NCBI RefSeq assembly: GCF_013122565.1
Contig: NZ_CP053258.1
Source: Escherichia coli
Lineage (GTDB): Bacteria; Pseudomonadota; Gammaproteobacteria; Enterobacterales; Enterobacteriaceae
Reading direction: 5' to 3' (one strand)
Length of the DNA: 64,000 nucleotides
The notes beneath the pieces are model-generated. The model searched no databases and had not been told where the DNA came from. It was given only the letters and a program-made list of their open reading frames with translations. Positions 1,636 through 7,352 of this stretch are shown piece after piece (the stretch's first letter is position 1; each line of letters opens with the position of its first letter). The position numbers and the translations under genes were made by a program.

Positions 1636-2232
1636 ATGAATTATCAACGCATAATTGTAGCGCTATTGTTAATCATCGGAATAAATACGCAATGCCTGGC
1701 TGGCTCCAGTTCGTTGAACGTGACGGTGAGGACAACCGTTACCGCCAGTACCTGCACAGCAGAGCTTCACAATGCGCAGGACCTGCAAGCGACAACAATT
1801 GATATTGGTGATGTCTATCTGAACGAACTTGCAAATAAGACTAAATATCAGAATTTCAGCCTGGTGTTTTCAAATTGTGAAGGCTTAGCCAAAGATCAGG
1901 CGACCGTCACACTTTCTCCGCAAACAGGCTGCGATGGTGCATCCAGTACGGGTGGCGGATTTCGCAACGCACTGGCCTCCAGCGACAATGATGCGGCAAC
2001 CGGCGTATCGATTGAAGTATGGACGACCAATCAGCCGGAAGGTCAGGGAAGTGTGCAGCTAAACTGCAAGACAAAACCGACCAGTATTGTCGATCTGACG
2101 GGCGCGTCAGGTGCGAACGTTGTCCACTGGTGGTTAAGCTCCAGAATTGTCGTCGCCGCGGATAACACTATCGCCGATGTACGTGCAGGGCAGTTCTCCA
2201 CCAACGCTGTCTTTTCAGTAACCTATGAGTAA
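1636..2232 (+). CDS. yadL: Fimbrial subunit-like protein
   Basis: 198-aa ORF with signal peptide, fimbrial-subunit-like C-terminus (VFSVTYE), operon context. Confidence 0.8.
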   Translation: MNYQRIIVALLLIIGINTQCLAGSSSLNVTVRTTVTASTCTAELHNAQDLQATTIDIGDVYLNELANKTKYQNFSLVFSNCEGLAKDQATVTLSPQTGCDGASSTGGGFRNALASSDNDAATGVSIEVWTTNQPEGQGSVQLNCKTKPTSIVDLTGASGANVVHWWLSSRIVVAADNTIADVRAGQFSTNAVFSVTYE

Positions 2233-4981: not shown

Positions 4982-5833
4982 GTGTTAATTATCGAAACCC
5001 TGCCGCTGCTGCGTCAGCAAATTCGCCGCCTGCGTATGGAAGGCAAGCGCGTGGCGCTGGTGCCTACCATGGGTAACCTGCACGATGGCCATATGAAGCT
5101 AGTCGACGAAGCCAAAGCCCGCGCCGATGTGGTCGTCGTCAGTATTTTCGTTAACCCGATGCAGTTCGACCGCCCGGAAGATCTGGCTCGTTATCCACGG
5201 ACCTTGCAGGAGGACTGCGAGAAGCTAAACAAACGTAAAGTAGATTTAGTTTTCGCCCCTTCGGTAAAAGAGATCTACCCGAACGGTACAGAAACCCACA
5301 CCTATGTTGATGTTCCTGGTCTTTCCACCATGCTGGAAGGTGCCAGCCGTCCGGGACATTTTCGCGGCGTTTCGACTATTGTCAGCAAGCTGTTCAACCT
5401 GGTCCAGCCGGACATCGCCTGCTTCGGTGAAAAAGATTTTCAGCAACTGGCGCTGATCCGCAAAATGGTTGCTGATATGGGCTTTGATATTGAGATTGTC
5501 GGTGTGCCAATTATGCGCGCCAAAGACGGTCTGGCGCTGAGTTCCCGTAACGGTTATCTGACGGCGGAACAACGTAAAATTGCGCCCGGTCTGTACAAAG
5601 TTTTAAGTTCGATTGCCGACAAATTGCAGGCTGGCGAACGGGATCTCGATGAAATTATTGCTATTGCCGGGCAAGAACTGAATGAAAAAGGCTTCCGCGC
5701 CGATGATATTCAGATTCGCGATGCCGACACGTTGCTGGAAGTCTCTGAAACCAGCAAACGGGCAGTGATTCTGGTAGCCGCCTGGCTTGGCGATGCCCGC
5801 CTGATCGACAACAAAATAGTCGAACTGGCGTAA
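4982..5833 (+). CDS. panC: Pantothenate synthetase
   Basis: Recognised PanC ([18 protein letters not shown]...); GTG start 11 bp after panB. Confidence 0.95.
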
Positions 5834-5839
5834 TACTTA

Positions 5840-5875
5840 ACTGGCGCTACGGCTGATGGCGCCAGTTATTAATTT
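5840..5875 (+). terminator. Candidate intrinsic terminator after panC
   Basis: Inverted repeat ctggcgc...gcgccag (5841-5847 / 5859-5865) followed by T-rich tract, immediately after panC stop. Confidence 0.5.
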
Positions 5876-5928
5876 GCCCTACGTCATGGCGATGACGTCT
5901 GTAAGTGATTATTCATATCGCTGGCAAT

Positions 5929-6110
5929 TTAGTTAGAGTTAATTAGCTTATCAATCTCTGTAAGAGGTAAAGTTGTCACCTCTGCAACGTCTTCCCGAGA
6001 CATCCCTTTACTTAGAAAACGCTGGGCGAATTCCTGTCTTACCTTCTGGAGTTCCTCTTGATATCCCTTCTGAAATCCCTTCTCTTCAAACCACTGCGCC
6101 AACGTCTGCC
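5929..6110. repeat. Copy 1 of tandemly duplicated rpnC 3'-end (tail-encoding) segment
   Basis: About 85% nucleotide identity to 6207..6360 by eye, with 6-bp and 24-bp indels. Confidence 0.7.
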
Positions 6111-6138
6111 TGGTTTCTCTCCGTGTCTTTATTTCCAT
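5929..6138 (-). CDS. Orphan 69-aa ORF homologous to the C-terminal tail of RpnC (free-standing Rpn tail-domain-like small protein); coding status unproven
   Basis: ATG at 6136-6138 with AAGGGA upstream; protein ...TLAQWFEEKG...KGMSREDVAEVTTLPLTEIDKLINSN parallels RpnC tail ...TLAQWFEERG...KGMSREDVAEMANLPLAEIDKLIN; underlying DNA is a diverged tandem copy of the rpnC 3' end. Confidence 0.4.
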   Translation of the reverse strand: MEIKTRRETRQTLAQWFEEKGFQKGYQEELQKVRQEFAQRFLSKGMSREDVAEVTTLPLTEIDKLINSN

Positions 6139-6206
6139 AGGTTCCCTTAATTATCTGGTCAGTTAACAATAACAATTATCTGGCTATAACTGATGATGCA
6201 GACAAC

Positions 6207-6360
6207 TTAGTTAATCAGCTTATCAATCTCGGCAAGGGGTAAATTTGCCATCTCTGCAACGTCTTCCCGAGACATTCCTTTATTCAGAAGACGCAGGGCG
6301 AATTCTTGCCTTTCCTCCTGTCTTCCCCTCTCTTCAAACCACTGCGCCAGCGTCATCATA
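6207..6360. repeat. Copy 2 of tandemly duplicated tail-encoding segment (the native rpnC 3' end)
   Basis: Aligned by eye with 5929..6110 (shared ttagtta...cagcttatcaatctc...ctctgcaacgtcttcccgagacat...cgaattc...ctcttcaaaccactgcgcca). Confidence 0.7.
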
Positions 6361-7079
6361 GACTCCCCTCCCGTTTCCCTGTCTCTCAACACACTGTAAA
6401 ACAAATCCGCTTGTTCAGTATGACCGCGTTGCAGCATATAGTTTTGCATGGCAACTAACTGACTTCCGCTAGTGTACCCTTCGTCGATCAGCGTGACCAG
6501 TTGCTCCAGCAATAACATTAAGTCGCGCTGGCGAATATGTTTTTGCAGTAGTTCGAGAATCGCAATCCGCCGATGTTGCATGATTTCGTCATCCGGTGTG
6601 ATGGTGATATCCACCAGCGGGAAAGGACTGTTATAGACGCGTCGTGCCAGCTCCGGCGAGTAAAACATATCAAACCAGCACATTGAGAGCGGATAAGGTG
6701 TGGCCTCGCCCTGATAAAACAGTATCGGCACCACCAGCGGCAGCTTATCGTGATCCGCCTCCAGATGCCGGTGCATGGCAGCAATAGAATAACGCATCAT
6801 GCGAAAGGCCATTTTCTTATCCGGCTTGCTTTGGTGTTCAATCACAACATGCAGATAACCGGGATTGCCCTGCATTTGCACGGAATAGAGCACGTCCGTG
6901 CTGTGTCCTTTCAGGCTCTCTTCAATGAAACTCCCCGACTCTAAATGAAGCGTGTTGAGGTCACAAAGTTCGCGTAATTCCACTGGCAAATGTATCTCCA
7001 GAAAGTCGCGAGCCGTCTCCGCATGCATTAAAAATTGTTTAAATACCGCATCATGCGGTGTGGTACTCGGTGCATCCAT
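6207..7079 (-). CDS. rpnC: Recombination-promoting nuclease RpnC (YhgA-like, PD-(D/E)XK / transposase_31 family)
   Basis: Recognised YadD/RpnC-like protein; start set at MDAPSTTP (ATG 7077-7079); ORF-track start 7136 is an upstream in-frame alternative; internal in-frame Met-Met at 6354-6359 could start a 50-aa tail protein. Confidence 0.85.
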   Translation of the reverse strand: MDAPSTTPHDAVFKQFLMHAETARDFLEIHLPVELRELCDLNTLHLESGSFIEESLKGHSTDVLYSVQMQGNPGYLHVVIEHQSKPDKKMAFRMMRYSIAAMHRHLEADHDKLPLVVPILFYQGEATPYPLSMCWFDMFYSPELARRVYNSPFPLVDITITPDDEIMQHRRIAILELLQKHIRQRDLMLLLEQLVTLIDEGYTSGSQLVAMQNYMLQRGHTEQADLFYSVLRDRETGGESMMTLAQWFEERGRQEERQEFALRLLNKGMSREDVAEMANLPLAEIDKLIN

Positions 7080-7352
7080 CTTCCCTGCCTTCCGTGTTGT
7101 CTTGCGTGAAGGCAGTATCCAGTCAAGGTGTGCCATCGTCAGCCACCTCTTTAGTGTTTACCGAGCAGCGTTCAGAGAAATTTCAATTGGTTACAGGCGT
7201 TACATGGCACGCTTCGGCGCGGTACGCAAACTGCTGATGCAAATGCCGTCAGATGAGTAGACACTAAACAAAAATCGGGCAATACTGCGTGAGAATTTCC
7301 TCAAAGCAGGCACCGCCTGCTTCGTTAACGACAGGGTAGAAAGGTAGAAGTT

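Follow-up and report, generated by a model that had tools for sequence, protein, structure and literature searches.

Rpn nucleases are antiphage systems that resemble toxin-antitoxin modules, with the tail of the toxin itself, made from an internal start, serving as antitoxin. All E. coli rpn genes make such a small protein, RpnS, which blocks the toxic full-length nuclease RpnL, and internal-start translation has been demonstrated for rpnC of K-12 (Zhong et al. 2023, PNAS 120:e2307382120, PMC10400941). Some E. coli strains, and only some, carry a second rpnC-S coding copy, rpnC-Ss, directly downstream of rpnC (Zhong et al. 2023, Fig. 2I, PMC10400941). RpnC-Ss clusters with RpnC-S, which indicates an origin from rpnC; the RpnSs proteins vary, too, by 4-aa repeats, and rpnC-Ss can be lost when it is deleted or when it is fused to the rpnC body (Zhong et al. 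2023, PMC10400941). In an SOS assay, one added repeat abolished the neutralisation of RpnC-L by RpnC-S, and neutralisation was regained only with the repeat in both partners (Zhong et al. 2023, PMC10400941). YpaA (RpnE-Ss) was detected as a protein in K-12 by SPA tagging, and the main text of the same paper describes no test of RpnC-Ss expression or activity, the strain used, K-12, being without the gene (Zhong et al. 2023, PMC10400941). The commentary that accompanied the paper states that a second copy decouples toxin and antitoxin. A tail copy outside rpnC breaks a toxin-antitoxin co-evolution that is otherwise obligatory.

Here we analyse such a copy in a 64,000-nt stretch of an E. coli genome (the window). 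A sequence-only reading of the window had proposed a free-standing, strain-variable copy of the RpnC tail, in agreement with the published description; the feature is rpnC-Ss, correctly re-discovered from raw sequence and already known. As an explanation of the whole locus, we think it probable on balance that rpnC-Ss is a free-standing second gene for the RpnC C-terminal (RpnS) domain which acts as an uncoupled alternative-specificity module.

Architecture of the rpnC-panC interval

Using the ORF list, the segmentation of the locus, a terminator scan and RNA folding, we mapped the features of the interval (Table 1). The rpnC stop codon occupies 6207-6209 on the minus strand, and 373 bp (5834..6206) separate it from the stop codon of the convergent panC gene. 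The rpnC open frame reaches upstream to 7136, the first ATG in the ORF list; the start at 7079 is the position that matches the PGAP annotation in the near-identical strains A34 and CP53. The rpnC product matches TIGR01784 at 7.8e-81, and its residues 1-240 are identical to K-12 RpnC at 239 of 240 positions, so that the differences lie nearly all in the tail. The internal start region of K-12 rpnC is conserved in the window, with an ATG-ATG at 6354-6359 and the Shine-Dalgarno sequence (SD) GGGAGGGGAG immediately upstream. The start of rpnC-Ss is an ATG at 6136-6138, and its SD, AAGGGA at 6143-6148, lies 4 nt upstream of the ATG and is weaker than the resident GGGAGGGGAG. Each tail carries a repeat tract, and that of Ss exceeds the resident one by 8 residues, or two 4-aa repeats. 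Beyond the Ss stop there are two hairpins, one at 5881-5898 and a terminator with a 12-bp stem at 5838-5868.

Table 1. Features of the rpnC-panC interval, in coordinates of the window.
Feature	Position	Strand	Description
rpnC (RpnC-L)	6207..7079	minus	290-aa Rpn/YhgA-like PD-(D/E)XK nuclease; ORF list
rpnC-S, resident internal small ORF	6207..6359	minus	50 aa, MMTLAQWFEE...; sequence and segmentation
Resident repeat tract (linker)	6294..6329	minus	12 residues, RGRQEERQEFAL
Spacer, rpnC stop to Ss start	6139..6206	minus	68 nt
rpnC-Ss, free-standing second RpnC tail copy	5929..6138	minus	intact 69-codon ORF
Ss repeat tract	6022..6081	minus	20 residues, KGFQKGYQEELQKVRQEFAQ
Two hairpins, Ss stop to convergent panC stop	5838..5898	.	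terminator scan, RNA fold

Automated labels for rpnC-Ss vary. PGAP calls it a "hypothetical protein", a "transposase", an "RpnC/YadD family protein" or a pseudogene missing its N-terminus, and the locus thereby exposes an annotation problem. The Ss ORFs of A34, CP53 and Nissle are flagged "missing N-terminus", yet they translate in full; the flags stem from comparison with full-length Rpn proteins and not from defects in the sequence.

The second tail is an old tandem duplicate

The two tail copies form ungapped direct repeats at 5937-6048 and 6209-6320 (86% identity) and at 6056-6106 and 6304-6354 (80% identity), and their gapped alignment contains a 24-bp and a 6-bp indel. At the protein level, the 69-aa ORF aligns to residues 254-309 of RpnC (long-frame numbering) with 41 of 64 positions identical (64%, E = 3e-22), a match that far exceeds chance, and its match to TIGR01784 covers C-terminal positions 213-273, the last 61 of 273, at E = 2.8e-8. 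The sequence-only reading had placed a second, diverged tail copy after the rpnC stop, with 6-bp and 24-bp indels, its own ATG and SD-like AAGGGA, and a 69-aa product that parallels the RpnC tail; coordinates, direct repeats and alignments bear out each of these points.

Between resident and Ss copies of the same genome, divergence is about 0.25 at synonymous and about 0.07 at non-synonymous sites, so that change since the duplication has been mostly synonymous. The resident tail and all Ss alleles have a core in common, TLAQWFEE, KGM-REDVAE and L-L-E-DK-I. Upstream of the resident internal start the homology appears to go on (RDRETGGES against KTRRETRQ). The Ss copy has lost the internal ATG-ATG and begins at a new ATG further upstream, which gives it an N-terminal extension of 9 residues without counterpart in RpnC-S (MEIKTRRETRQ against MM). 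As read from these alignments, the comparison shows an origin of rpnC-Ss by old tandem duplication of the rpnC tail-coding segment.

Transcription and translation signals

The spacer that separates rpnC from Ss is conserved. It is exactly 68 nt long in 15 of 15 two-copy E. coli loci, its 3' 46 nt, including the SD, are invariant in the 15 loci up to two bases before the ATG, and 62 of 68 positions are identical in E. marmotae. It holds the direct repeat CCAGATAATT at 6174-6183 and again at 6149-6158, two occurrences in the window where 0.12 are expected. A consensus scan found no sigma-70 promoter in the 68-nt spacer or the rpnC tail. By eye, only weak GATAAT boxes are seen in these two segments. 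A terminator scan of the spacer found none, and the spacer RNA folds no better than shuffled sequence (z = +1.06), which argues that it contains neither an attenuator nor a terminator. The hairpin region after the Ss ORF folds at -29.4 kcal/mol (z = -3.39), and 0 of 200 shuffles fold as well. Its terminator at 5838-5868 is common to the rpnC-Ss side and the convergent panC, and the hairpins are likely to mark the end of an rpnC, rpnC-S and rpnC-Ss transcript.

Since the spacer lacks a terminator, rpnC-Ss would probably be transcribed by read-through from the rpnC promoter and the internal rpnC-S promoter. The ATG of rpnC-Ss, preceded by the AAGGGA SD, is the predicted translation start. The simplest reading of these signals would be that rpnC-Ss shares a transcript with rpnC and rpnC-S and is translated from a start of its own.

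Predicted fold and family membership

An AlphaFold2 model of the 69-aa ORF, built on 18 aligned tails, has a mean pLDDT of 71 and helices at residues 5-19, 22-43, 48-55 and 59-68, that is, a long helix from 5 to 43 kinked at 20-21, followed by two short helices. This shape agrees with the published description of RpnA-S. Foldseek aligns the model to the RpnA-S crystal structure 7TH0 with a target TM-score of 0.84 and an rmsd of 0.8 A over 41 columns, at rank 28 and a non-significant E of 2.0, and many generic helix-turn-helix domains score similarly. The model suggests that the Ss product would be a 69-aa helical protein with the RpnA-S dimerisation fold, in which the long first helix would carry the 4-aa repeat tract ahead of the two short helices.

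Separate RpnS genes are annotated in some species under the family DUF4351 (PF14261). Pfam gave no significant family for the 69-aa ORF or the 18 aligned tails; DUF4351 itself did not match the ORF and reached E <= 0.1 in only 2 of the 18 tails. A precomputed match to PF27070.1 is present on some of the homologue clusters described below. A sequence search of solved structures retrieved the designed repeat protein 8vd6 and marginal helix-turn-helix proteins only, and RpnA-S was not among them. No PADLOC model matches RpnC, and the 69-aa ORF matches only RmrA, weakly (E = 5e-4).

Distribution among genomes

We counted carriage with a query that runs from the Ss ORF through the spacer to the rpnC stop, at a threshold of at least 80% of the query. 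The copy is found in 1554 of 5426 complete E. coli genomes (~29%), which leaves ~71% without it, and 175 of the 1554 carriers are at least 99% identical to the window over the Ss-plus-spacer query. The earlier suspicion that the panC-panD interval is a few hundred bp longer here than in K-12, and variable between strains, is confirmed: the rpnC-panC stop-to-stop gap is 73 bp in K-12 strain EMG2 compared to 373 bp in the window, K-12-like genomes span only 531 bp of a wider 801-bp interval, and alignment of the rpnC-panC interval reveals no Ss tail copy in K-12 or O157. Loci with one and with two tail copies both occur in E. coli, and two copies are also present in E. marmotae.

Two candidate variants were rejected. 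The 298-bp interval of O157:H7 was considered as a degraded tail copy, and alignment shows an unrelated insertion of ~220 bp adjoining the panC stop. Two-piece matches spanning 375-399 bp suggested a third tail copy; MINF_9A, MRY15-131 and AR_0055 have only two.

A protein search returned 138 homologue clusters. The majority are free-standing proteins, 55-86 aa long, from E. coli, E. marmotae and other species of Escherichia. On two E. marmotae contigs we find the same order as in the window, namely panD, rpnC, a 68-nt spacer, a 69-aa ORF and panC. This common layout implies that the duplication is old or that it has moved between species by homologous exchange. Rfam has no match on either strand of 5700-7350, which is as much as could be said for taking the ORF as a non-coding regulatory repeat; nothing specific favours that reading. 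It is vanishingly improbable, together with a chance ORF or an assembly artefact, and all three are refuted by the protein similarity to the RpnC tail (E = 3e-22) and by the same architecture in more than 1500 independent complete genomes and a second species.

Maintenance of the open reading frame

From different levels of the similarity ranking we sampled 15 two-copy E. coli loci, which are phylogenetically non-independent and represent ~8-9 distinct haplotypes, and added the 2 E. marmotae loci. The Ss ORF is intact in 14 of the 15 loci from E. coli and likewise in both from E. marmotae; the single exception, strain 2017.09.02CC, is frameshifted. The sequence-only reading had held that stops or frameshifts in relatives carrying the duplication would count against a functional ORF, and with the exception of 2017.09.02CC the frame has stood up. 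The start codon, SD and spacer length are conserved across the sampled two-copy loci, and the Ss N-terminus MEIKTRRETRQTLAQWFEE is nearly invariant, following the pattern M-[E/D]-IKTRR[E/V]TRQTLAQWFEE.

Substitution patterns are less clear-cut, and since the gene is so small the selection statistics are weak. Among E. coli alleles, pN/pS is 0.59 for Ss and 0.28 for the resident tails, values not compared with neutrality. Against its E. marmotae orthologue, Ss has a dN/dS of 0.50, from 6 synonymous and 12 non-synonymous changes only and again not compared with neutrality, compared to 0.02 for the neighbouring panC. Synonymous divergence from E. marmotae is 0.14 for Ss and 0.31 for panC.

These figures bear on the possibility that rpnC-Ss is a non-functional, slowly decaying duplicate, which persists because it is young or is refreshed by gene conversion and whose open frame is incidental. 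Such a history would account for the relaxed constraint (both ratios above), the frameshifted allele, the ~71% of E. coli genomes without a copy and the frequent pseudogene label; slippage of 12-nt repeats preserves the frame automatically, and the low synonymous divergence from E. marmotae fits a recent exchange or conversion. However, the ORF, ATG, SD and exact 68-nt spacer are retained across E. coli phylogroups and in E. marmotae, the new 9-residue N-terminal extension is nearly invariant although RpnC-S has no counterpart of it, and two non-repeat indels of 6 bp each are in frame. In addition, paralogue divergence is mostly synonymous, the analogous YpaA is a detected protein, and the PGAP flags reflect comparison with full-length Rpn proteins. 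We therefore regard decay as quite unlikely. Relaxed or diversifying constraint on a protein fits these sequences better than a dead duplicate does, while falling short of proof.

Repeat tracts of the resident and Ss tails differ in length

In Rpn systems the small protein blocks the full-length nuclease by pairing with its identical tail, and this pairing needs an equal repeat number. For both copies of each locus we took the length of the tract that lies between WFEE and R[LF]L[SN]KGM (Table 2). Among the other sampled strains the resident tract ranges from 12 to 36 residues, and units of the KGFQ, RQEV and YQEA types make up the Ss linkers, which have 16, 18, 20, 22 or 28 residues. The two tracts of a locus are unequal in 17 of 17 sampled loci (15 E. 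coli and 2 E. marmotae), with a gap of 8 to 20 residues, although resident and Ss length distributions barely overlap, so that an absence of matches would be expected even if the tracts were unrelated. In some loci (Ss linkers of 18 or 22 residues) the two lengths are not a whole number of 4-aa repeats apart, the repeat units differ between the tracts as well, and there is no sign in the sample that Ss and resident lengths co-vary.

Table 2. Linker residues in the two tails of sampled E. coli loci.
Loci	Resident/Ss
Window, A34, CP53	12/20
TUM9975, E41-1, AR_0055	28/18
2A, MINF_9A, E17	32/18
M11957	36/22
MRY15-131	32/22
A8	32/16
JNE23-001	24/16
19AR0646	36/28
Nissle	36/16

A functional RpnS antitoxin needs as many repeats as its toxin, and Ss has 20 linker residues against 12 in the window. 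From this mismatch and the published assay, Ss is predicted not to neutralise the resident RpnC-L, an extrapolation from one engineered insertion experiment. The consistency of the mismatch may argue in the same direction, that Ss does not neutralise its neighbour.

The alternative is that Ss is a redundant or booster antitoxin whose binding to the resident RpnC-L tail tolerates the difference in repeat tract; as a booster, it would raise the ratio of small to full-length protein, with its regulation decoupled from rpnC translation. The commentary on the 2023 paper suggests such decoupling, RpnE-Ss (YpaA) is made in K-12 (Zhong et al. 2023, PMC10400941), and rpnC-Ss has both a conserved ORF, SD and ATG and, in all its alleles, the invariant core of the resident tail. 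We nevertheless consider this role unlikely, because the lengths differ in every sampled locus of both species, in part by amounts that are not multiples of 4, and do not co-vary, and because a single extra repeat was enough to abolish neutralisation in the published assay. With a tract two repeats longer than that of the resident tail, the Ss protein would be less likely to serve the resident RpnC-L as a redundant antitoxin than to form an uncoupled tail module of alternative specificity.

Recombination between the two tail copies

By deletion the rpnC body can become joined to the tail of Ss, and by gene conversion resident-type sequence can replace part of the Ss copy. We compared the C-terminal segments of the tail copies base by base and found alleles of both kinds. 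In the single-copy strain PEC1013 the C-segment of the rpnC tail is identical to the Ss copy of M11957 and ends in the Ss-type ...LINSN; on this comparison the allele is a fusion of the rpnC body to an Ss tail, with the resident tail deleted. In TUM9975, E41-1 and AR_0055 the C-segment of Ss is resident-type and ends in ...MIN without the SN extension, and judged by the same segments these Ss copies are gene conversions to the resident type. The K-12 tail is resident-type over most of its length, with last codons (INLI) and a 3' flank that resemble the E. marmotae Ss copy, a hint that K-12, too, may owe its single-copy allele to a fusion. As far as sequenced alleles record it, these cases show that the two tail copies recombine, by deletion-fusion and by gene conversion.

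Three readings had been offered from the sequence: an extra antitoxin-like tail protein, a spare tail cassette for recombinational swapping, and a decaying duplication. The cassette has gained direct support from the PEC1013 fusion and the conversions in TUM9975, E41-1 and AR_0055, decay is disfavoured by the 14 of 15 intact frames in E. coli and those in E. marmotae, and the antitoxin reading is weakened by lengths that never match. We find it most likely that the product of rpnC-Ss is a small protein of RpnS fold that is not coupled to the tail of the resident toxin, and that the gene also supplies sequence for replacing tails by recombination. A broader proposal, which we put forward tentatively and with more doubt than confidence, is that RpnSs copies in general (rpnC-Ss in every sampled locus and YpaA in K-12), out of register as they are with the resident toxin tail, are stored alternative specificities and not antitoxins of the neighbouring nuclease. 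Should this hold, deletion-fusion or gene conversion could carry the stored tail into rpnC and so replace the toxin tail together with its antitoxin; the stored tail could also pre-empt an incoming non-self Rpn allele; and the locus would represent a cassette mechanism that diversifies the self-recognition helix of a defence system.

Comparison with known Rpn systems

The window ORF and the rpnC-Ss of Zhong et al. (2023) are the same object, with no difference in kind. Since the existence of the copy is already published, the present finding adds nothing categorical. It adds to the published gene its frequency of ~29%, the E. marmotae layout, the conserved 68-nt spacer and the new start codon, together with a repeat tract that never matches the resident tail in our sample and specific fusion and conversion alleles.

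A related case is YpaA (RpnE-Ss) of K-12, which is likewise a free-standing Rpn tail copy directly downstream, on the same strand, of its parent gene, rpnE. Here too the repeat number differs from that of the resident tail, YpaA having 61 aa and one extra KLEG repeat compared to the 57 aa of RpnE-S. The two are independent duplications, however. In YpaA the duplicated unit keeps the original SD and ATG behind a spacer of 12 nt, whereas rpnC-Ss lies behind a spacer of 68 nt and, having lost the original internal start, begins at a new ATG. In RefSeq, RpnE is called inactive and ypaA is called a pseudogene.

With the intragenic RpnS antitoxins (RpnA-S, 7TH0; RpnC-S), the predicted Ss protein would have in common a long repeat-bearing helix followed by two short ones. 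In contrast to them, rpnC-Ss is encoded outside the toxin gene and is thus not forced to co-evolve with the toxin tail, and its repeat tract does not match that of the resident toxin in length. It differs from RpnC-S, finally, in carrying the 9-residue N-terminal extension.

A single-copy fusion allele

In strain PEC1013 rpnC is present as a single-copy allele, and the Ss copy of strain M11957, that is, its free-standing downstream copy of the RpnC tail, is identical to the tail C-segment of this allele. Judged by its sequence, PEC1013 rpnC is a natural fusion in which the downstream tail is joined to the body of the nuclease. At the other end of the gene, 19 codons of open rpnC frame lie upstream of the annotated start in the window (MAHLDWILPSRKTTRKAGK-MDAPSTT...), and in near-identical strains PGAP places the start at the downstream ATG, 7079.

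Coordinates of features at rpnC and the compared loci
Feature	Sequence	Position	Strand	Remark
Single-copy rpnC allele	L018	1116-2006		strain PEC1013
Upstream extension of rpnC frame	window	7080-7136	minus	
rpnE-ypaA	L021	3637-4002		MG1655
RmrA and 8vd6 matches	window	5932-6138		Ss protein residues 21-67
Spacer 10-mer, two copies	window	6149-6158 and 6174-6183	minus	
O157:H7 insertion	L003	about 1640-1860		O157:H7 strain OK1; alignment A2 columns 642-844

Sequences flanking the Ss ORF

The spacer between rpnC and the Ss ORF contains the 10-mer CCAGATAATT twice, 25 nt apart, against a whole-window expectation of 0.12 occurrences, and its 3′ 46 nt are without variation in all 15 of the 15 E. coli loci sampled. 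The repeat and the invariant stretch could be part of an operator or a promoter; alternatively, the sequence may just be young. On the panC side, an insertion of ~220 bp in O157:H7 strains separates the panC stop from the shared terminator hairpin. Alignment A2 rules out a tail copy as the identity of this insertion; by eye, it includes a putative ERIC/IRU-like core, AAGCTCCTGGGGATT.

Annotation and family matches

The same intact Ss gene is named differently by PGAP among the compared loci L001, L005, L016, L011, and L002, with labels for the ORF of "hypothetical protein", "transposase", "RpnC/YadD family protein", or pseudogene "missing N-terminus". The Ss ORF has a weak PADLOC match to RmrA (positions 290-336 of 357, E = 5e-4) and also matches the designed "CAP repeat" protein 8vd6, spanning five repeats (E = 2.9e-6). 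A generic motif of helix-turn-helix-like type (KGMSREDVAE..L...EIDKLI) probably accounts for both matches. PF27070.1 appears as a precomputed Pfam hit on some Ss homologue clusters in the homologue hit table; the Pfam scan of the Ss ORF and of 18 aligned tails did not report it.

The rpnE-ypaA locus of K-12

RefSeq labels K-12 ypaA a pseudogene and RpnE inactive. At this locus the SD and the ATG both fall within the duplicated unit, the spacer is just 12 nt, and YpaA (RpnE-Ss, 61 aa) has one 4-aa repeat, KLEG, more than RpnE-S (57 aa), the small tail protein made from the internal start.
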